Shown here: positions 27,764 through 50,494 of the stretch, in pieces | Layout: each line of letters starts with the position of its first letter | How positions within the stretch are numbered: position 1 is the first letter of the stretch | Assembly: GCA_016934215.1 (NCBI GenBank) | Contig: JAFGTE010000033.1 | Location: 8,781 to 72,780 of the forward strand | Length of the DNA: 64,000 nt | Direction of reading: 5' to 3' | Source of the DNA: Candidatus Peregrinibacteria bacterium | Lineage (GTDB): Bacteria > Patescibacteriota > Gracilibacteria > UM-FILTER-43-11 | Position numbers and translations under genes: made by a program | The notes under the pieces: model-generated | Database searches by the model: none | What the model saw: the letters and a program-made list of their open reading frames with translations, nothing else | What the model was told of the DNA's origin: nothing

Positions 27764-28183
27764 ATGCCAACCATAAATCAATTAGTTAGAAAGGCCAGGC
27801 GTACGCCGAAAAAGAAGAGCAAGGCTCCGGCGCTTCAGTTTACTTTTAATTCACTTAAAAACCGTGCGGTTTTTCTTGACCGGGGGGCGCCTCAGAAACG
27901 GGGGGTTTGCATCAAGGTGACTACCATGACTCCCAAGAAACCGAATTCGGCTTTACGTAAAATTGCCCGTGTGAGGCTGACCAACGGAAAAGAAATAAAT
28001 GCTTATATTATGGGTGAAGGTCATAATCTTCAGGAACATTCTGTTGTTACGATTTATGGAGGCAGAGTGAAGGATTTACCTGGTGTGCCTTATCATATTA
28101 CCCGCGGTGTGCTTGATTGTCAGGGGGTCCAGAAACGAAAACAGGGGCGCAGCCGTTACGGAGCCAAAAAACCTAAAGAATAG
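27764..28183 (+). CDS. rpsL: 30S ribosomal protein S12.
   Basis: [10 protein letters not shown]...[10 protein letters not shown]...GHNLQEHS matches S12. Confidence 0.97.
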
Positions 28184-28219: not shown

Positions 28220-28678
28220 ATGACGAAAACTAAATATATACCAGAGGGATCTACCAAATGGCAGGAAAAATTTATTAACTGCATGATGTTACGTGGTAAA
28301 AAATCTATTTCGCGAAGTATTTTTGGTAACGCTATGAAAATCATGCGTGATCAGGGTATTAAGCATCCTGAAGAGGTTTTTGAAAAAGCGATCCGTAACG
28401 TGATGCCTAATATGGAAGTACGCGCTCGTCGGGTCGGCGGCAGTGTGTATCAGATTCCTGTGGAAGTAAAACCCAAAAGGCAGCTGGCACTTTCTATGCG
28501 CTGGATTATCGGTGCATGTCGCGGCAAAAAAGGTAAGGCTATGGCTGAAAAACTGGCTGCAGAGTTTTTAGAAGCGAGCAAAGAAACTGGTAACGCCTTC
28601 AAAAAACGTGAAGATGTACACCGAATGGCTGCAGCTAATAAAGCTTTTGCGCATTTGGCCCGGTATAGTAAAGGATAG
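28220..28678 (+). CDS. rpsG: 30S ribosomal protein S7.
   Basis: FINCMMLRGKKS...VEVRARRVGGSVYQIPVEV...ANKAFAH matches S7. Confidence 0.95.
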   Translation: MTKTKYIPEGSTKWQEKFINCMMLRGKKSISRSIFGNAMKIMRDQGIKHPEEVFEKAIRNVMPNMEVRARRVGGSVYQIPVEVKPKRQLALSMRWIIGACRGKKGKAMAEKLAAEFLEASKETGNAFKKREDVHRMAAANKAFAHLARYSKG

Positions 28679-40847: not shown

Positions 40848-40876
40848 TTGACATAAACTAAAAAACATAATATATT
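40848..40876 (+). promoter_or_regulatory. Sigma70-like promoter candidate upstream of gene 40901 and of fusA.
   Basis: TTGACA (40848-53), a 17-nt spacer and TATATT (40871-76) lie in an AT-rich divergent intergenic region. Confidence 0.45.
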
Positions 40877-40900
40877 CGCTTCCATTTATGATTGTTTCTT

Positions 40901-41305
40901 ATGAAATTAGAGGATGCTAAAGATTTAGGGGAAAGACTCGAATGTTTAACGTCTTCTGAGCAAGCTAATTGCAAGTCTTTTCTTATTCTGCTGCGGGAAC
41001 TGGATCATGCGATGCACATGGAACAGCAGGTCAAGGCTTTAGATGTGTCGCTGTCTGAGCCGGAAGCTGTTTATTTGGCGATGAGCAGGCGAAGAATGAT
41101 CAGAGTTCTGATGCAGGTTGCCCAAGATGATAACGTTAAGGAATTTATGAATTTGCAGGAGTGGGAATTGGAAAAGAGAAGAATCGAAAAACACGGCGGC
41201 ATTGGAAATCCTACGCGTGATAAATTCATAAATTGTATGCATGTTTATCTGGAAGAAAAACTGAAAAAGGTAAGAGAAGCAGAAGAGGATGAAAGAGCTG
41301 CCTAA
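40901..41305 (+). CDS. Hypothetical helical protein.
   Basis: It is 134 aa from the ATG at 40901 (the track uses TTG at 40892). No known motif is present. Confidence 0.5.
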   Translation: MKLEDAKDLGERLECLTSSEQANCKSFLILLRELDHAMHMEQQVKALDVSLSEPEAVYLAMSRRRMIRVLMQVAQDDNVKEFMNLQEWELEKRRIEKHGGIGNPTRDKFINCMHVYLEEKLKKVREAEEDERAA

Positions 41306-41400: not shown

Positions 41401-43488
41401 ATGGCAGATTTTAAAGAAGCTCTTAAAATGGTACGCAATTTCGGTATTATTGCGCATATTGATGCCGGTAAAACAACCGTTACGGAGCGTGTTTTGTATT
41501 ACACCGGTAAAAACTACAAAATCGGCGAAGTACATGAAGGAGAAGCTACGATGGACTGGATGGAACAGGAACAGGAGCGTGGTATTACGATCACAGCAGC
41601 CGCCACAACCTGTTTTTGGAAGGGGCATCAATATAACATTATCGATACTCCCGGGCATGTAGATTTTACAGCGGAAGTAGAACGTTCTATGCGCGTGCTT
41701 GATGGAGGCGTTGTGGTGTTTGATGGTGTGGCCGGAGTGGAACCTCAGTCGGAAACGGTATGGCGTCAGGCTGATAAATACCATGTGCCTCGTATGTGCT
41801 TTATCAATAAACTGGATCGTACAGGTGCCAGTTTTGAAAAATCTTTCCAAAGTATTTTAAAAAGACTGACCAAAAAAGCTTCCCCCTTACAGCTGCCTAT
41901 TGGTATTGAAAGTGGTTTTAAAGGACTCATTGATTTAATTGAGATGAAGGCCACCATTTATAAAGATGATATGGGCAAGGAAATGGAACAGATTGATATT
42001 CCGGAAGACATGAAAGCTTCGGCTGAAGAATGGCGTGCCAAGCTTCTTGAAAAAGTGGCGGAGGGAGATGAAATTTTTATGGAAAAATATCTGGGAGGTG
42101 AGGAGTCTACTGTGGAAGAGTTAAAAGCGGCTATTCGCCGTGCAGTGATTGCCAATCAGTTTGTGCCGGTTCTAACGGGTACGGCGCTTAAAAATAAAGG
42201 GGTACAGCTGCTTCTGGATGCGGTCAACGATTATCTGCCCTCGCCTCTTGATATTCCGCCAATTCATGGCCATATGGTTGATGACGAAGCTAAAATAGTA
42301 GAACGTCATACCAGTCCTGATGAACCGCTTGGCGCTCTGGTGTTTAAAATTGCCACGGATCCTTTTGTCGGCCGTCTGTGTTTTGTGCGCGTGTATTCCG
42401 GTGTGCTTAAATCCGGCTCTTATATATATAATTCTTCTCAGGGGGAAAAAGAGCGCATTGGCCGACTTGTTGAAATGCATGCCAATGAACGAAAAGAAAT
42501 CCAGGAAATTTCAGCCGGTCATATTGGTGCGGTCATCGGACTCAAGTCAGTTCGCACGGGAAGCACGCTGGTGGGTGACGGCGCGCCAAAAGTTATTCTG
42601 GAATCCATTACCTTTCCTGAACCGGTTATTTCCATTGCCATTGAACCCAAGACCAAGGCGGATCAGGAAAAGATGGCCCTTAGTTTGCAGAAACTGGCCG
42701 AAGAAGATCCCACATTCCGGGTGCGTACGGATGAGGAAACCAATCAGACCATTATTTCCGGTATGGGAGAGCTTCATCTGGAGGTTTTGGTGGATCGCAT
42801 GAAACGTGAATTCAAAGTGGAGGCCAATGTCGGCCGCCCTCAGGTAGCTTATCGGGAGACTGTTCAGAAAGAAGTGGAGGAAGAAGAAAAGTACGCTAAG
42901 CAGACAGGTGGCCGCGGTCAGTACGGACACGTTTTAATCCGCATCATGCCGAACGAAGCCGGTAAAGGATACGAATTTATCGATTCCATCGTGGGAGGAC
43001 GCATTCCCAGGGAATATATTCCCGGTGTGCAGAAAGGAATTCTGGAAGCCCTGACGCGTGGTGTGATTGCCGGGTACCAGGTGGTTGATGTGAAGGTAGA
43101 GCTTTACGATGGTTCCTATCATGATGTGGACTCTTCGGAACTTGCTTTTAAAATGGCGGCCAGCATTGCTTTCCAGCGTGGCGCCAAAAAAGCGGATCCC
43201 ATTCTTTTAGAGCCCATGATGAGCGTGGAAGTGGTCACTCCGGAAGAGTTTATGGGCGATGTGATGGGCAATCTTAATTCCAAACGCGGTCAGATTGATA
43301 GCATGGGAGACCGCGGAGAAGCCAAAACCATTACGGCTAAGGTGCCGCTTTCTGAAATGTTCGGTTATGCCACCGATCTTCGCTCTATGACTCAGGGAAG
43401 AGCCAGTTATACGATGGAATTTTCTCACTACGCCAAGGTTCCGAAGAACATCGAAGAGAAAATCAAGACGGAGCGTGGAATGACCTGA
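41401..43488 (+). CDS. fusA: Elongation factor G.
   Basis: Conserved blocks are [31 protein letters not shown] and [16 protein letters not shown]. Confidence 0.97.
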
Positions 43489-43623
43489 TTCTGAAACCTT
43501 GCAAACAAGCCAGAATATATTGGGAACTTATTCCTTATTTTTGACAAGCAAAAGCGTTTTCTTTGTTTGTCATTAAAGTCTTTTTTTGCTACACTTTTTA
43601 AGAAAATAATTTCAAAACAAAAA

Positions 43624-44124
43624 ATGAAAAAGAAATCAATAAAAAGCTTTTCCAAATCGCTTATGTCAGCCACACTCAGGGGTCTGGCGATTTTTGCCAT
43701 ATTCGGAACTGCCTTGTATGCTTACGCGTCAGTGACCTATCCGGTCAGCCAGCCTAACCCCGTTTCCGGCGTGGTGGGGCTTTATGTGGGGGCCACGGAT
43801 GGTACCACGGATGGAGATATAGGTGGTTATGATGCGGCTGCTAGTGATTGTACGTCAAAGTTTCCTGATAGCCATATATGTACCCCTATGGAAATAATTA
43901 ACACTTACAATCATAATTTATCGGCTGTTTCTGGTGTAAGTGGGGCTGTTTGGCTGAATTCAGGTGCTCCTGCAAATACAACACCAGCTGTCAATGATTG
44001 TCAGGGGTGGACGAAAGGTGCGGGAGAATATGGTTTTTATGGCGTAATCTGGTTATTCGATAATGTTGATTCCTCTGGAATTGCGCCGTGTCCTTTTGGA
44101 CTTCCATTCGCATGCTGTAAATAA
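43624..44124 (+). CDS. Small secreted Cys-containing protein of unknown function.
   Basis: The ATG at 43624 gives MKKKSIKSF...LAIFAIFGTALYAYA, a signal peptide. It has 7 Cys, including a C-terminal FACCK. The block GGYDAAASDC...HICTPMEI...AVWLNS...CQGWT loosely recalls DUF1554/endostatin-like lectin-fold proteins, but this is unverified. Confidence 0.55.
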   Translation: MKKKSIKSFSKSLMSATLRGLAIFAIFGTALYAYASVTYPVSQPNPVSGVVGLYVGATDGTTDGDIGGYDAAASDCTSKFPDSHICTPMEIINTYNHNLSAVSGVSGAVWLNSGAPANTTPAVNDCQGWTKGAGEYGFYGVIWLFDNVDSSGIAPCPFGLPFACCK

Positions 44125-44164
44125 TTTATAAATGTTTGAAATAACAATAAAATCTAAGATAAAT

Positions 44165-47100
44165 ATGAAAACTATAAAGTCATTATTTATTATTCCATTT
44201 CTAGCTCTTCTGTTTTTATTTCCGCAAGTTGGTTATGCAGTTAATGAAGTATGTTATGCAGGTCAGGATGGCTGTCCTGATCCGCCAGATTCTTCAAAAT
44301 GTGTACCTCCTCCAGTACTACTTTTGGGTTGTCCACCAGGGACTGTTTGGATTGGAAATGCTTCCACTGGTCAATGTTCCCCTGCAGTTACTTGTTCTGC
44401 GGGAGTGGATAGATTCTATTGTGAAACGGGTAGTTGCTGGACGCAGCCCACAGCCGGGCCGCCTCCACCACCAGCTGCCTGTACCACTGCCAATGTGACC
44501 ACTGGGTCCGCAAATGCCTGTTGTACGGACGGTCAGATTGTTGTAAGGAACGGTACAAGCAATACCTGGGAATGTGCTGATCTTACGCCGGGACTTTGGT
44601 CCGAAACAGGAGTCAATGATATCTATTTTGATGGTGGAAATGTGGGAGTTGGAACAGATGCACCTCTTTCAAAATTCCATGTGGATGGTCAACTCAGAAT
44701 TTCGAATGCTGCAAATAGTGCCAATTATCTGACTATTGGACATGGTGGTACTCATTCCTATTTTAATAATGAAGGAGTAGGTAATATTGAACTTAGAATA
44801 GGGGGGAATACTAAATTAGCAGTTGAACCTGATGGAAGTGTAATTTCCGATGAATATTGTTTGGGTACCGATTGTATTACTGAATGGCCTAGTGGTGGCC
44901 TTTGGTCTGAGAGCACTGATCCCGGAAGTATTTATTATAATGACGGTAATGTGGGAATTGGCACCAATATTCCGGCTTATGAACTAGATGTTGCTGGGGA
45001 CGCAAATGCGACCCGGTTATGTATTAATGGTGATTGTAAACCTGCCTGGCCTACTTATACAGGTGCTGATTTATGGGAAGAAAATTGGGGTCATGTTTAC
45101 AGGCCCACAGGTCATGTTGCTGTAGGACTTCCTACTACTACTACTCCTGGCGGGGTGTTGCAGGTGGCAACGGATGTCCCTGTTGTAATAAATAATTGTG
45201 AGTCTTCTTTTCTTATCGGTACCTGTACCGGCCCTCATGTTGAGATGGACTCCAATTCACTTCAGGCAAAAGCAACTAATGTTACCGTTGCTACTTTGAA
45301 TCTTCAGGAATTGGGGGGTAATTTGCAAGTCGATGGCAGTACGCTGGTGGTGGATGGCACCAATAACAAAGTGGGTATTGGTACCACTTCTCCGGCCGGG
45401 GCATTACATATTGCAACCTACCAGGAAGCTGATCTTACAAATGCGGAAGCGTCCTTTATGATAGGGCCGACTACAAGTTACCATCTTGAAATGGATTCGA
45501 ATGATATTCAGGGTAAGGCGGATACCGTGCATGCCGGTACACTCAATTTACAGGCGGATGGCGGAAGTTTAGATGTTGGCAATAACAACAATCTTTTTGT
45601 TGAAACGGCTACCAGCAGAGTCGGTATTAATACTGATGATCCTGCTTATGCTTTGCATGTCATAGGGCAGGTAAATGGAAGCACAGGGCTTTGTATAGCT
45701 GGTGTTTGCAGAACCACCTGGCCTGAAAGTAGTACCAGTCTATGGACTGAGAATGGTTCAAATATCTATAGGAGTGGCGGTGGTAATGTGGGGATTGACG
45801 ATACGGTTCCGTTGGCAACATTAAGTGTTGTCGGTCAGGTACGCGCTTCTGACCTGGCTGATGAAGCCGAGTATATAGAAATAGATCACGGGGGTGCCAA
45901 TGCTCTTATAAATTGGGCTGGTGACGGCAATCTGGATTTCAGAAGAACCGGTACCACTTTAATGACTTTGGAGCAGGATGGTGATCTGGGAATTGGTGAT
46001 ACGACACCGGATGCAAAACTTGATGTTGAAGGTGGTATTAGAGCGCATAGTATTTATGGCGAAAATAACGATACTTTCGATATTACATCGGCTGATAACT
46101 ACTTTATTGATTTAGAGTCCAATGATGATACTTACGGGCTTATTATAAGGGAAAGTACCGTACAAAATGGTGACGCAACTGCGGATTATTTAAACATTGA
46201 GCCAAAAGATACTTATACTGGATTTGGCGCTTCTCAATCTGGTGCAGATTTGCTGCTTTATGAAGATGGTAAGCTCGAAATTGTGAATGGACCTGATAAT
46301 AACGGTAGTACGGCTTCTTTGGTGGTAGGGGATGGTTCAAATACGCTTTACATGGATGGAAATGAAATAGACAGTGACGGGTCGTTGTATTTGCAACATA
46401 ATAGCAGCGGAAATGTTTATATCGATGGCGGTGGTAAGGTTACGATTGGGACTGCTACTCCTGCTGCTTCAACTTCATTAACAATAGTTACTCCAACCAG
46501 CAGTGAATTATACTATACAGGTATCGATGTTAGTTCACCGTCTAATGGGGTTGGTATTATCGGCAGATCTACGGGCAATACGGGTGTTATGGGTACAACT
46601 GATTACGGCGTTGGTGTTATTGGTATGGCTACACATGGTAATGGTATGGAGGCACAAGGTGGTTATGCAGGGATTATGGCAGGCGGTGATACCGCTGGTG
46701 GTATTTTCCAAAGCGGAGCTACTAGTGCCTATATCGCTTATGCTGGTTATGTTGTAGATGGTAATGGTGATATTCGTGCAAGTGGCAGTATACTTCCTGG
46801 TTCAAGTAAAATATACACAACTAACGGTGATCTGGTTTTTGAACCGAATAGTGAATCTGCTGATCGTTTTTATGTTTCGAATGAAGGTCAAATGGTATTG
46901 GTCGGCACTAATGGAATTTGGCTGGCCAGCGCCAGTTATGCCGGTAAGATTGGGGGCGGAACCTGGACGAATAGCTCTGATGCAAGGTTAAAAGATGTGC
47001 ATGGTGCTTATGAAAAGGGCTTGGCAGATATTCTTGGGCTGAAGCCGGTCACTTTTAATTATAAGAAGGATAACCCAAAAGGTCTTCCTTCCAATGACGA

Positions 47101-47314
47101 ATATATTGGTTTTATTGCTCAGGATGTGGAACCGATTTTCCCGGAGGCGATCAGTACGGATGATGACGGATATTTACAGTTTGATATGCATTCAATTAAT
47201 GTTGCCGCTATCAATGCAATCAAACAGCTAAAAGCTGAAAAGGACGCTGAAATTGCTGAACTCAAGGCAGTAGTTTGCGAACTTAAACCGGAGGCGGAAG
47301 TTTGTAATAAATAA
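44165..47314 (+). CDS. Tail-fibre-like secreted protein with a C-terminal peptidase-S74 (endosialidase intramolecular chaperone) domain.
   Basis: The signal peptide is MKTIKSLFIIPFLALLFLFPQVGYA. The N-terminus is Cys/Pro-rich. It carries repeated LW(S/T)E...IYY.DGNVGIGT..P...L.V.G units and repeated C(I/L)xGxCxxxWP units. The C-terminus reads SSDARLKDVHGAYEKGLADILGLKPVTFNYKKD...YIGFIAQDVEPIFPEAIS...INAIKQLKAEKDAEIAELKA. Confidence 0.8.
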   Translation: MKTIKSLFIIPFLALLFLFPQVGYAVNEVCYAGQDGCPDPPDSSKCVPPPVLLLGCPPGTVWIGNASTGQCSPAVTCSAGVDRFYCETGSCWTQPTAGPPPPPAACTTANVTTGSANACCTDGQIVVRNGTSNTWECADLTPGLWSETGVNDIYFDGGNVGVGTDAPLSKFHVDGQLRISNAANSANYLTIGHGGTHSYFNNEGVGNIELRIGGNTKLAVEPDGSVISDEYCLGTDCITEWPSGGLWSESTDPGSIYYNDGNVGIGTNIPAYELDVAGDANATRLCINGDCKPAWPTYTGADLWEENWGHVYRPTGHVAVGLPTTTTPGGVLQVATDVPVVINNCESSFLIGTCTGPHVEMDSNSLQAKATNVTVATLNLQELGGNLQVDGSTLVVDGTNNKVGIGTTSPAGALHIATYQEADLTNAEASFMIGPTTSYHLEMDSNDIQGKADTVHAGTLNLQADGGSLDVGNNNNLFVETATSRVGINTDDPAYALHVIGQVNGSTGLCIAGVCRTTWPESSTSLWTENGSNIYRSGGGNVGIDDTVPLATLSVVGQVRASDLADEAEYIEIDHGGANALINWAGDGNLDFRRTGTTLMTLEQDGDLGIGDTTPDAKLDVEGGIRAHSIYGENNDTFDITSADNYFIDLESNDDTYGLIIRESTVQNGDATADYLNIEPKDTYTGFGASQSGADLLLYEDGKLEIVNGPDNNGSTASLVVGDGSNTLYMDGNEIDSDGSLYLQHNSSGNVYIDGGGKVTIGTATPAASTSLTIVTPTSSELYYTGIDVSSPSNGVGIIGRSTGNTGVMGTTDYGVGVIGMATHGNGMEAQGGYAGIMAGGDTAGGIFQSGATSAYIAYAGYVVDGNGDIRASGSILPGSSKIYTTNGDLVFEPNSESADRFYVSNEGQMVLVGTNGIWLASASYAGKIGGGTWTNSSDARLKDVHGAYEKGLADILGLKPVTFNYKKDNPKGLPSNDEYIGFIAQDVEPIFPEAISTDDDGYLQFDMHSINVAAINAIKQLKAEKDAEIAELKAVVCELKPEAEVCNK

Positions 47315-47333
47315 TCATTGATTTTAATTTTTT

Positions 47334-48023
47334 ATGAATAATTTCAGAAAATTTTTACCTTTATTAGTACTGGCACTGATGGTGCTTGCGGCTTGTGCTA
47401 AAGAGCAAATGGGACAGGAGGTAAAAACTATGGTGCAGGTGCAGCCGGCCACGGAAGCGGCGACGGATGATGCTGATACTGAGGAAATGGTGCGTGAATC
47501 CAGATATGGTATGGGCCTTAAATGTAGTATGTTAAAAAACACTCAAACACAGCAAGAATGCGAAGTTGAATTAAATGATGTGATTGGCTCAATGCTGTCT
47601 TCCGAAATTGTCAGTACTTTTGACGCAAAGCGTTGTAAAGAATTAGCGCCTGCTGTTGCCGCGGATTGTGAAAGTAAAATTGCCGCTATGGGTGTGCAAG
47701 GGCCTGTGAGTGAAGAAGAGCGCGCCATGTTTGCTGAGGCTATCAAACCTGTTCGACCTGAAGCTGCCGGACCTGATGCTGAAGAAGCTGAATCAATTTA
47801 TGATAAAACCAAGTGTGCTGAATTAAAAACACCTGGTTATCAGGCTTATTGTGAAAAAACGATAGATAGTCGTATGGATCAGGATAAACTCGGATCAATA
47901 GTTGAATCAGATAATGTCAGTCGGTGCGATGAATTGGTGACGGAAAGCCTCAGAGAAGATTGTAGGGCATATTTTGGCATTGAACCTGAAGAAGTTGAGG
48001 AAGAAACACCTGACGAAGTTTGA
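47334..48023 (+). CDS. Acidic lipoprotein with repeated C-x-E-L-x(7-8)-C units.
   Basis: The lipobox is LVLALMVLAAC. Repeats are RCKELAPAVAADC, KCAELKTPGYQAYC and RCDELVTESLREDC. Confidence 0.6.
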   Translation: MNNFRKFLPLLVLALMVLAACAKEQMGQEVKTMVQVQPATEAATDDADTEEMVRESRYGMGLKCSMLKNTQTQQECEVELNDVIGSMLSSEIVSTFDAKRCKELAPAVAADCESKIAAMGVQGPVSEEERAMFAEAIKPVRPEAAGPDAEEAESIYDKTKCAELKTPGYQAYCEKTIDSRMDQDKLGSIVESDNVSRCDELVTESLREDCRAYFGIEPEEVEEETPDEV

Positions 48024-48081
48024 CTTTCACTTCTTTTTGACTGAGAATCTTATCGTTCATTAATTACTTAAATTTTTTAAT

Positions 48082-48348
48082 ATGTCACTCAAGAAAGCGC
48101 CCGTACTAAAAGTTATCGCTATTATCTGGATCGTTTTTGCCAGTCTATATGTGGTTTACAGTGAATACCAGCGCGTGCAGATCATGGTGGCTCAGCGGGC
48201 TTATAACACCGGTTTGCGAGATGCTGTAAATCAGCTTATTACGCAAGCTCAGACCTGCAAAGCTATACCAGTTACTTCCGGTGAAGTAAGTGTGAACCTG
48301 ATCAATATTGACTGTCTGAATGCTGCTGCCGAAGAAACAGCTGAATAG
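48082..48348 (+). CDS. Small membrane-anchored hypothetical protein.
   Basis: It is 88 aa with a single N-terminal TM segment (VLKVIAIIWIVFASLYVVY). Confidence 0.45.
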   Translation: MSLKKAPVLKVIAIIWIVFASLYVVYSEYQRVQIMVAQRAYNTGLRDAVNQLITQAQTCKAIPVTSGEVSVNLINIDCLNAAAEETAE

Positions 48349-48375
48349 ATTTTATGATCGGTTTTATAAAATGTT

Positions 48376-48404
48376 TTGACACTAAAAATTCTATTTGCTA
48401 AAAT
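48376..48404 (+). promoter_or_regulatory. Near-consensus sigma70-like promoter candidate for tuf.
   Basis: TTGACA (48376-81), a 17-nt spacer and TAAAAT (48399-404) lie 40 nt upstream of the tuf ATG. Confidence 0.5.
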
Positions 48405-48444
48405 CCTCGTGCTTTAATTTTATTTTTAATAAACTCAAATAATT

Positions 48445-49638
48445 ATGGCTGAAGGAAAATTCGATCGCAGTAAGCCACATGTAAACGTTGGTACCATTGG
48501 TCACGTGGATCATGGTAAAACCACTCTTACCGCTGCTATTACTGCTGTTGCCGCTGCGAAAATGGGCGGCATTAACAAAGCCGTTGCATTTGATCAGATC
48601 GACAATGCGCCGGAAGAAAGAGAACGTGGGATTACCATCGCTACGTCTCACCAGGAATACGAAACCAGTAAGCGTCATTACGCTCACGTAGACTGTCCTG
48701 GTCATGCTGACTATGTAAAGAACATGATTACAGGCGCAGCACAAATGGATGGTGCCATTTTGGTTGTATCTGCGGCTGATGGACCTATGCCACAGACCCG
48801 TGAACACATTCTGCTTGCCCGTCAGGTAAATGTACCTTATGTCGTTGTTTTTCTGAACAAGTGCGATATGGTGGATGATCCTGAACTTCTTGATCTTGTA
48901 GAGATGGAGGTTCGTGAGCTTCTGACGAAATACGAATTTCCGGGTGACGATATTCCTATTGTCCGCGGTTCTGCTCTTAAGGCACTTGAAAACCCAACCG
49001 GTCCGGATGCTGAGCCTGTTGTTGAACTGCTTGCTAAACTGGATGAATATATTCCGCAACCAGAACGCGCTTTGGATAAAGAATTCCTAATGCCTGTTGA
49101 AGATATCTTCTCTATCAAAGGTCGTGGTACGGTGGCTACCGGTCGTATTGAACAAGGTGTCGTGAACGTGAACGATGAAGTAGAAATTGTTGGTCTTAAG
49201 CCTACCCGAAAAGTGGTGGTTACCGGTGTTGAAATGTTCCGCAAACTGCTGGATCGTGGCGAAGCCGGTGATAACGTAGGACTTCTCCTTCGCGGTGTGG
49301 AACGTGATGAAATCGAAAGAGGCCAGGTGTTGGCAAAACCGGGTTATATTACCCCCCACACTGAATTTACGGCTGAAATTTACGTTCTGACCAAAGAGGA
49401 AGGCGGACGCCATACGCCATTCTTTAAAGGTTACAAACCTCAGTTCTATATTCGAACCACCGATGTAACCGGTGAGGTTCATTTGCCTGCCGGAACCGAG
49501 ATGGTGATGCCTGGTGATAGTATCAACCTTGATATCACTCTTGGTAAGCCTATCGCGATGGACGAAGGTACCCGCTTCGCTATTCGTGAGGGAGGCCGCA
49601 CGGTTGGTGCCGGTGTGGTTACCAAAGTGAAGAAATAG
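48445..49638 (+). CDS. tuf: Elongation factor Tu.
   Basis: Conserved blocks are [41 protein letters not shown] and NKCD. Confidence 0.98.
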
Positions 49639-49756: not shown

Positions 49757-50086
49757 ATGGCTGAAAAAAAGAAGGAAAGTACCCAGCGCATTCGCATCAC
49801 CCTCAAAGCTTTCGATCATACGATTATCGATAAAGCTGTTGAAACCATCATACAAACCGCGGAACGCACGGGGGCTATTGTGGCTGGGCCCATTCCGTTG
49901 CCTACCAAAATCAAGAAATTCACCATCAATCGTTCCACTTTCATTTCCAAAGATGCCCGTGAACAGTTTGAAATGAGAATTCACAAGCGGTTAATTGATT
50001 TGCGTGAGACTACCTCTGCCACCATTGAAGCGCTGACTAATCTTTCTTTGCCGGCCGGCGTGGATATTGAAATTAAGATGCTCTAA
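49757..50086 (+). CDS. rpsJ: 30S ribosomal protein S10.
   Basis: [41 protein letters not shown] matches S10. Confidence 0.95.
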
Positions 50087-50143: not shown

Positions 50144-50494
50144 ATGAAATCGTTCAAAGAGGCTATTGTGTGGCAGAAGAGTTATAAACTCACTCTGTTC
50201 ATTTACCGAATAACTGCTCAGTTCCCAAGGGCTGAAGAATTTGGTTTAAAATCGCAGTTGCGTAGAGCTGCTGTGTCTCTGATATCTAATTTTGCAGAAG
50301 GGTTTAAGCGTATCAGCTATAAAGAGCGTATTCAGTATTACAAGATGTCTGAGGGTTCTTTGGAAGAGATAAAGTGTCAAACGGAGTTATGTAAGGATTT
50401 AGGTTATCTGAGTTTGAAGATTTATGGTCAATTGGAGGTGTTGGAAGAAGAAGTTGGTAGATTGCTATGGCGTTGGATAAGCGTTCAAAAATAG
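50144..50494 (+). CDS. Four-helix-bundle protein of the 23S rRNA intervening-sequence protein family.
   Basis: Family-typical sequence is present: AIVWQKSYKLTLFIYRITAQFPRAEEFGLKSQLRRAAVSLISNFAEGF.R.SYKE..QYY.MSEGSLEE. Confidence 0.85.
   Translation: MKSFKEAIVWQKSYKLTLFIYRITAQFPRAEEFGLKSQLRRAAVSLISNFAEGFKRISYKERIQYYKMSEGSLEEIKCQTELCKDLGYLSLKIYGQLEVLEEEVGRLLWRWISVQK

Follow-up and report, generated by a model that had tools for sequence, protein, structure and literature searches.

The elongation factor genes fusA and tuf of a Candidatus Peregrinibacteria bacterium are separated by four genes on the same strand, and in our judgment this stretch is probably a vertically inherited, fast-evolving surface-fiber module of a family of small-genome bacteria of the candidate phyla radiation (CPR, or Patescibacteria), with attachment as its most likely role. 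The four genes, here called ORF1 to ORF4 (ORF, open reading frame) and jointly the cassette, lie in a 64,000-nucleotide stretch of DNA (the window, whose numbering is used throughout) on contig C9 of a genome, G000, that comprises 1.01 Mb in 34 contigs and is 96% complete. An earlier description made from the letters alone, the sequence-only reading, had presented them as an insertion between two normally adjacent genes. We located fusA, tuf, and relatives of ORF2 in 40 related genomes and fetched 16 fusA–tuf intervals or half-intervals from relatives together with two metagenome contigs, L032 and L033, the second of which has its 5′ end inside fusA and its 3′ end 53 nucleotides (nt) into tuf. 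The genes and their flanks are as follows (aa, amino acids):

41401–43488, + strand: fusA (EF-G), the upstream flank; Pfam GTP_EFTU, EFG_III, EFG_IV, and EFG_C; 88–92% identity in genus relatives.
43624–44124, + strand: ORF1, 166 aa; a TTG at 43567 is another possible start, but relatives favor 43624.
44165–47314, + strand: ORF2, 1049 aa; an ATG at 44132 is another possible start, but relatives begin at the MK(K/T) equivalent of 44165.
47334–48023, + strand: ORF3, 229 aa, an acidic lipoprotein with lipobox LAAC and four Cys-pair repeats C-x11-13-C, described from its sequence and its same-slot homologs.
48082–48348, + strand: ORF4, 88 aa, a single-pass membrane protein of a class-wide family, with one transmembrane (TM) helix and a two-Cys ectodomain, described from an alignment and an AlphaFold2 model.
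48445–49638, + strand: tuf (EF-Tu), the downstream flank; Pfam match, single copy in the genome by tblastn.

We consider all four ORFs to be real genes, because homologs are found at the same position in relatives, and the sequence-only reading placed them correctly as co-directional + strand genes between the fusA stop at 43488 and the tuf start at 48445. Each is single copy in the genome. The successive gaps from fusA through ORF1, ORF2, ORF3, and ORF4 to tuf measure 135, 40, 19, 58, and 96 nt, so that the common orientation and tight packing described earlier hold good (19–58 nt between ORFs), except that a 7-nt gap given there relies on the 44132 start of ORF2 and is otherwise 40 nt. All six leaders (those of fusA, ORF1–4, and tuf) are A/T rich and lack a Shine–Dalgarno motif. 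A hydrophobicity scan finds exactly one strongly hydrophobic N-terminal segment in each of the four products, in agreement with the earlier claim that all of them carry a signal, lipobox, or TM feature: ORF1 begins with a basic n-region followed by LAIFAIFGTALYAYA (...ALYAYA), ORF2 has a classical signal peptide with a predicted cleavage site, ORF3 has the LAAC lipobox, and ORF4 has its helix. ORF1, ORF3, and ORF4 match nothing in Pfam, NCBIfam, or PHROG, even at E values up to 5. Some relatives in the class read TGA in frame; in the window genome it is a stop. Independent assemblies, the single-contig genome G014 among them, agree on the gene order and support the contiguity of the interval, and there are no runs of N between positions 41000 and 50000 of the window.

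The conservation of the interval carries the argument for inheritance. Cassette genes adjoin fusA, tuf, or both in 21 of the 24 family relatives counted, half-intervals at contig ends included, and contig ends or missing genes make the other three uninformative. In eight family relatives fusA and tuf share one contig, 3.1–11.6 kb apart (among them 5.4 kb in G001, 7.7 kb in G005, 6.1 kb in G009, 7.8 kb in G013, 11.6 kb in G014, 3.1 kb in G020, and 4.2 kb in G024); the whole interval spans about 5.5 kb on metagenome contig L032, and 6.8 kb in G025, a member of the sister family, which has the same order and the rest of the cassette without ORF4. The order is constant: fusA, an ORF1 homolog, zero to two fibers with an ORF1-like end, a large fiber (usually terminated by a Peptidase_S74 domain, hereafter S74), an anchored acidic protein, an ORF4 homolog, and tuf. 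The layout of L033 is identical to that of the four genes in the window, with products of 162, 963, 235, and 88 aa. In the closest relatives fusA and tuf are 88–94% identical, with ORF1 at 51–67%, ORF4 at 53–73%, ORF3 at 35–46%, and ORF2 at a patchy 25–56%. The identity of ORF1 to its G000 counterpart tracks that of fusA (Spearman 0.80) and tuf (0.90) over 11 comparisons, a descriptive measure given that the relatives are not independent.

These comparisons indicate that the cassette is inherited, having belonged to this stretch since the ancestor of the whole family, and is not a recent insertion. The opposite account, in which a horizontally acquired island or prophage remnant recently split an ancestral contiguous fusA–tuf pair, draws on the phage-like content of the stretch (an S74 tail-fiber protein) and on its composition, which is atypical in tetranucleotide distance (98th percentile) and in GC content (42.5% vs. 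45.1% for the genome, 9th percentile of 5-kb windows). We give it almost no credence. Most of the family keeps both the genes and their order, with ORF4 alone missing from the sister family, and ORF1 has diverged in step with the flanking genes; no flanking direct repeats, mobility genes (integrase included), or other phage genes were found around the cassette, which has only the four ORFs inside it, and no tRNA gene lies between positions 28000 and 52000. An empty junction, with fusA directly abutting tuf, was not found in any relative searched. A genomic island or prophage remnant is contradicted by the lack of boundaries, of mobility genes, and of empty sites, and by the presence of the cassette in 21 of 24 relatives. 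The premise that fusA and tuf are normally adjacent proved to be the wrong baseline, in that the two are mostly unlinked in other families of the class: they are on separate contigs in 13 of 16 sampled genomes, 18–37 kb apart on opposite strands in G027 and G032, and close together only in G031, where 3.0 kb with unrelated genes lies between them. The synteny of relatives, by which the sequence-only reading had proposed to tell an insertion from a lineage trait, shows a widely conserved lineage trait.

ORF2 is the fiber of the proposed module, and four of its parts can be delimited:

44165–44239, + strand: signal peptide, aa 1–25, with predicted cleavage between VGYA and V, judged by inspection and hydrophobicity.
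44240–44584, + strand: Cys-rich N-terminal domain, with 12 Cys within aa 30–137, drawn from the Cys positions; homologous N-domains start the fibers of relatives.
46976–46993, + strand: predicted autoproteolytic site SDARLK, aa 938–943 (Ser938/Lys943), from a motif search.
47009–47182, + strand: Peptidase_S74 intramolecular chaperone, aa 949–1006 (Pfam PF13884, E 8.4e-12, 45.6 bits vs. a cut-off of 22).

The earlier characterization of this protein as tail-fiber-like is well founded, given the Pfam Peptidase_S74 match (E 8e-12) and matches to PHROG tail-fiber families that span aa 130–1042 (best E 2e-19). The chaperone region also matches the distal subunit of the S16 long tail fiber (PDB 6f45, E 1.3e-3), and its S74 domain is the only one in the genome. 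The SDARLK motif aligns with SDARLKD of "tail fiber domain-containing" proteins of Bdellovibrio and Pseudobdellovibrio, at 39% identity over about 170 residues, and GNVGIGT-type fiber repeats are common to ORF2 and the fiber proteins of Bdellovibrionota. No paralog of ORF2 was found in the genome. Kinship with the four giant fiber-like proteins encoded in the neighboring rpsG–fusA gap was considered and rejected; one of them shares a 22-residue GNVGVGT-type motif only.

Comparison with relatives divides ORF2 into two parts of different affinity. Residues 24–137 are 58% identical to the N-domain of short fiber A of L032, which has a lectin-like tip, residues 297–1049 are 38% identical to fiber B of L032, which is S74 terminated, and the fiber of L033 can be aligned with ORF2 only from residue 118 on. 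From these matches ORF2 is best described as a mosaic of two fiber lineages, an A-type base on a B-type shaft and chaperone, with the junction placed by the alignments somewhere between residues ~140 and ~300. The two-part match to fibers A and B implies that the type of N-domain and the type of end assort independently, and recombination appears to shuffle the end modules. At least two fiber genes are present in the closest genomes (G001, G004, and L032), in contrast to one in G000; the contig of G003 ends within the second.

ORF1 is predicted to be an exported or membrane-anchored, free-standing copy of the domain that forms the tip of such fibers. In an alignment of 13 orthologs 22 columns are invariant, including six Cys and a C-terminal ACCK, and the AlphaFold2 model has an N-terminal helix (residues 7–35) followed by a mixed α/β domain. 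The top 50 matches of this model in a Foldseek search of the PDB are all C-type-lectin-like folds (snaclecs, natural killer cell receptors, endostatin), and a search of a viral library returns C-type lectins of poxviruses and herpesviruses and DUF1566 proteins of phages. On the strength of the model, we regard a C-type-lectin-like domain as probable but not proven: a comparison with the lectin and C-type lectin domain models of Pfam gave no match at E values up to 5, and a PDB profile search found nothing relevant. The same domain (profile positions ~45–166) forms the C-terminal end of neighboring fibers in relatives, and in other families an ORF1-like domain terminates proteins of 1100–2100 aa. 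An exhaustive profile search with the domain retrieves 1348 representatives of 50% identity clusters with E values no higher than 1e-3, of which 739 reach 1e-10 or better; among the best 150 of the 1348, nearly all matches run to the very C-terminus of the protein or stop a few residues short of it. Proteins with an ORF1-like domain range from 120 to 2200 aa, and eight of them that were examined have no Pfam domain in the matched region.

Two further proposals concern ORF1. Diversification of the lectin-like domain by a diversity-generating retroelement (DGR) is ruled out here, as a search for reverse transcriptase (PF00078) found none in the 96%-complete genome. The other proposal is that ORF1 is a detachable adhesin that docks on the S74 fiber tip after cleavage, in the manner of gp38 on gp37 in T2/S16-type phages, a comparison invited by the position of ORF1 directly 5′ of the fibers and by the match of the ORF2 chaperone region to the S16 distal subunit. 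We consider docking very unlikely, since G009 has an S74 fiber but no ORF1, while G005 and G021 have ORF1 and no Pfam S74 match in the three fibers scanned (a 486-aa fiber of G021 fell outside the scan), and the hydrophobic N-terminus of ORF1 itself fits a membrane-anchored protein.

The two remaining genes encode smaller proteins of unlike distribution. Homologs of ORF3 occupy the same slot in G001, G002, G004, G013, G020, L032, and L033, with E values down to 1e-55, and we propose from this pattern that ORF3 is a lineage-restricted lipoprotein partner of the fiber system. The ORF4 alignment has five invariant columns over 10 sequences, and the AlphaFold2 model shows a long helix (6–56), a hairpin (62–73), and a short helix, at low confidence (pLDDT 67, pTM 0.32). 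The ORF4 profile matches 82 of 301 genomes of the class, among them 22 of 30 in family f1, 30 of 40 in f10, and 9 of 12 in f17; a search for related loci based on ORF4 returned three, assigned to Patescibacteria group bacterium or Candidatus Paceibacterota bacterium. Small membrane proteins of the ORF4 family recur in or beside translation operons: the homolog in G040 (L037:5977-6258) lies between rplC and rplD in the S10 operon, and those in G093 and G051 lie near trmD, beside a TM protein of 246–267 aa.

Several observations weigh against the interpretation of the stretch as an inherited fiber module with a lectin-like component. The slot of ORF3 is held in other genera by other anchored acidic proteins without detectable similarity to it. 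Outside this family the ORF4 family is found away from fibers and from tuf, and ORF4 may be a bystander with a separate membrane role whose link to the fibers is positional only. The ORF1 model, built on the alignment of 13 orthologs, is of moderate confidence (pLDDT 69.6), and its Foldseek matches in the PDB are weak (best E 4e-3, TM 0.34–0.48). BLASTP detects no similarity between the N-domain of ORF2 and two S74 fiber proteins of Bdellovibrionota. Finally, the tetranucleotide and GC values of the cassette given above could hint at a foreign origin, although the Gly/Thr/Asn/Asp-biased content of the fiber is a sufficient alternative cause of the odd composition. The GC content of third codon positions is 0.31–0.32 in ORF2 and ORF3, compared with 0.40–0.45 in tuf and fusA, despite vertical inheritance.

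Some of these points would follow if the stretch were not one module at all, and the fusA–tuf spacer were instead a permissive, well-transcribed site that gathers unrelated genes for exported proteins, with ORF4 and perhaps ORF3 independent of the fibers. We see this as a possible but rather doubtful account. It accommodates the class-wide ORF4 family, found elsewhere at rplC/rplD or trmD without fibers, the presence of at least three unrelated protein families in the ORF3 slot, and the extra genes that relatives carry at the fusA-proximal junction, namely a gene for a 23S rRNA intervening sequence (IVS) protein in G013, an AcrB-type resistance-nodulation-division (RND) pump with a partner in G014, and a Bro-N protein in G025; in G013, a fragment of an IS200-like Y1 transposase also lies between ORF4 and tuf. 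Against it, the order of ORF1, one or more fibers, an anchored acidic protein, and ORF4 is kept across many genera in spite of such insertions, and the fusion of the ORF1 domain to neighboring fibers in relatives ties together at least ORF1 and the fibers. We retain the fiber module as the preferred reading.

The transcription signals predicted in the interval are three:

43542–43572, + strand: weak A/U-rich hairpin in the fusA–ORF1 spacer, from RNA folds and a hairpin scan; close relatives have a GC-rich, terminator-like hairpin with a T-run at the same place.
43567–43595, + strand: candidate cassette promoter TTGTCA-N17 (TGC)-TACACT, of the extended −10 type, from a promoter scan.
48376–48404, + strand: tuf promoter candidate TTGACA-17 (TGC)-TAAAAT, which agrees with the consensus at 11 of 12 positions and also has the TG.

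The cassette seems to have its own conserved promoter at the candidate site, given that TTGnnn-N14-TGn-TAnAnT is found 57–60 nt before ORF1 in G000–G004, L032, and L033 and as a TATTCT variant at −56 in G020, that is, in all eight genus-level sequences. In four of the eight (G002, G003, G004, and L032) a hairpin with a T-run overlaps the promoter site, with energies of −8.8 to −17.2 kcal/mol (−17.2 in G002, −13.5 in L032, and −12.5 in G003); the window, G001, and L033 have weak hairpins only, and no hairpin with a T-run in the window is better than −5. The conserved promoter-like site, together with the hairpin and T-run in half of these sequences, suggests that the cassette is probably not dependent on fusA transcription. 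The window itself has no convincing terminator after fusA and no terminator-like site between ORF4 and tuf, and in this genome the cassette is probably transcribed both alone and by read-through from fusA, its transcripts probably reading on into tuf. Transcription of tuf would then restart from its own conserved promoter: the site that the sequence-only reading had picked out at 48376–48404 is the top-scoring one in the region, and TTGACA-17-TGn-TA[AG]AAT stands upstream of tuf in all 13 relatives examined, sister family included, and a C-rich start region after it is conserved as well.

The closest known system is that of the mosaic adhesive trimer (MAT) fibers of Bdellovibrio bacteriovorus, a superfamily of signal-peptide-bearing, tail-fiber-like proteins of about 1000 aa encoded by chromosomal, non-phage genes, with 21 paralogs (Caulton et al. 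2024, PMC10769870). MAT fibers form two classes, one terminated by S74 with SDxxxK, the cleavage motif stated for both MAT and phage S74 proteins, and one without S74 and with swappable tips, of which the Bd2740 tip has a C-type-lectin fold; the tips (TNF-like, C-type lectin, β-sandwich) are combined by mosaic domain shuffling, and all MATs share a β-rich domain of ~130 aa directly after the signal peptide (PMC10769870). ORF2 resembles them in its signal peptide, its length of ~1000 aa, its tail-fiber build, its chromosomal non-phage gene, its S74 domain with SDxxxK, and its sequence similarity over the chaperone and repeats to the "tail fiber domain-containing" proteins of Bdellovibrionota, and the family as a whole resembles them in its mosaicism and in the lectin-like-tipped, non-S74 fibers of relatives. 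It differs in its host, an ultrasmall, monoderm-like CPR bacterium and not a Gram-negative predator, in having one fiber gene here compared with the 21 paralogs of Bdellovibrio, and in its N-domain of ~115 aa, which is Cys-rich and showed no detected similarity in a comparison with two Bdellovibrionota fibers, not with the MATs of strain HD100. The position fixed between fusA and tuf, the free-standing lectin-like gene, and the membrane partners are further differences. Membership of ORF2 in the MAT superfamily is not established; the most likely mode of action of ORF2 is nevertheless that of such a fiber or of a phage fiber.

Other known systems share parts of the module. The S74 tail fibers and tailspikes of phages (endosialidase, the T4/S16-type gp37, PDB 6f45) have the same chaperone, Ser–Lys motif, and GNVGIGT repeats and account for the PHROG matches, but ORF2 has a Sec signal peptide, no phage gene nearby, and no prophage boundaries, and it is inherited vertically with housekeeping genes. 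The C-type-lectin folds (snaclecs, endostatin, DUF1566/Lcl-C, and the DGR protein Mtd) are alike in the predicted fold of ORF1 and the fiber tips, the extreme C-terminal position, and the conserved disulfides; they are unlike it in that ORF1 has no Pfam lectin match, its fold is assigned weakly (no E value better than 4e-3), and its genome has no reverse transcriptase. The canonical str operon, rpsL-rpsG-fusA-tufA, is kept in order and orientation, with rpsL at 27764–28183, rpsG at 28220–28678, fusA at 41401–43488, tuf at 48445–49638, and then rpsJ at 49757–50086, all confirmed by Pfam. It departs from the canonical form in being split twice by surface-protein genes and in the conserved promoter of tuf itself, and the two elongation factor genes usually lie on separate contigs in the other families sampled from the class. 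Our literature search found no description of a fusA–tuf fiber module, of tail fibers in Peregrinibacteria, or of Peptidase_S74 in Patescibacteria.

The surroundings of the interval yielded a few separate observations. Upstream of fusA, a near-consensus promoter (40848–40876, TTGACA-17-TATATT, 11 of 12 positions) precedes a 137-aa ORF (40892–41305) that has no family match and no similarity to a 135-aa ORF in the equivalent position of L032; this ORF may not be a gene, and the promoter may serve fusA. Between rpsJ and rplC, a gene at 50144–50494 matches 23S_rRNA_IVP and bAvd-like models (a DGR accessory fold), in this genome without a reverse transcriptase. In L032, the gene publicly annotated between ORF4 and rpsJ (L032:11904-12995) is a 347-aa antisense ORF, and tblastn places there a + strand tuf gene that matches residues 1–362 only, so that the tuf of this contig may contain a frameshift or an assembly error toward the 3′ end.

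For the fiber module we posit the following mechanism. ORF2 would be exported by Sec, would trimerize by means of its C-terminal S74 intramolecular chaperone as phage tail fibers do, and would cleave itself at Ser938; the remaining fiber would be held at the cell surface by the Cys-rich N-terminal domain, presumed to be the cell-proximal base or anchor. The lectin-like domain of ORF1 would be the ligand-binding element, and the role would be to fasten the cell to other cells or to surfaces, as the MAT fibers of Bdellovibrio do. An alternative is that these are surface proteins with no part in adhesion, forming a structural, S-layer-like coat of the envelope or serving as a decoy or shield against phages with similar receptors. 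All products are predicted to be exported, and a location beside two strong, constitutive transcription units would suit structural proteins made in abundance; the neighboring rpsG–fusA gap contains an S-layer homology (SLH) cell-wall-anchor gene and more fiber-like genes, and pressure from phages would also predict fast turnover of sequence. We nevertheless judge a coat or shield unlikely, in view of the single fiber gene per genome here, which is few for a coat, and of the S74 fibers and lectin-like tips studied so far, which are recognition devices (phage receptor-binding proteins and MAT fibers, PMC10769870). Attachment remains our preferred role for the module. A more ambitious form of this reading we put forward only as a tentative possibility: the module would be the host-attachment apparatus of this CPR lineage, made up of a self-cleaving trimeric fiber and a lectin-like domain from a tip family of at least 1348 sequence clusters, and retained within the str operon from a time before the family split, with the supply of fibers coupled to expression of the translation apparatus and specificity altered by swaps of N-terminal and tip domains among neighboring fiber genes, of which ORF2 would be one.

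A life attached to other cells is presumed for members of the CPR/Patescibacteria, and to our knowledge almost nothing is known of the proteins by which they attach. We regard the module as a variant of the published MAT-fiber concept and not as a new kind of system; particular to it are its fixed place in the str operon, a lectin-like gene that stands free, the membrane proteins encoded alongside, and the CPR host. Its biochemistry is testable, in S938-dependent cleavage, in trimerization, and in the binding of glycans by the lectin-like domain, and the analysis brings to light a large family of C-terminal tip domains for which Pfam lacks a model. In this lineage the textbook str operon has stably housed genes for surface proteins, with tuf driven anew from a promoter of its own, and the locus offers a concrete, conserved, and easily located candidate for attachment, to be looked for between fusA and tuf.

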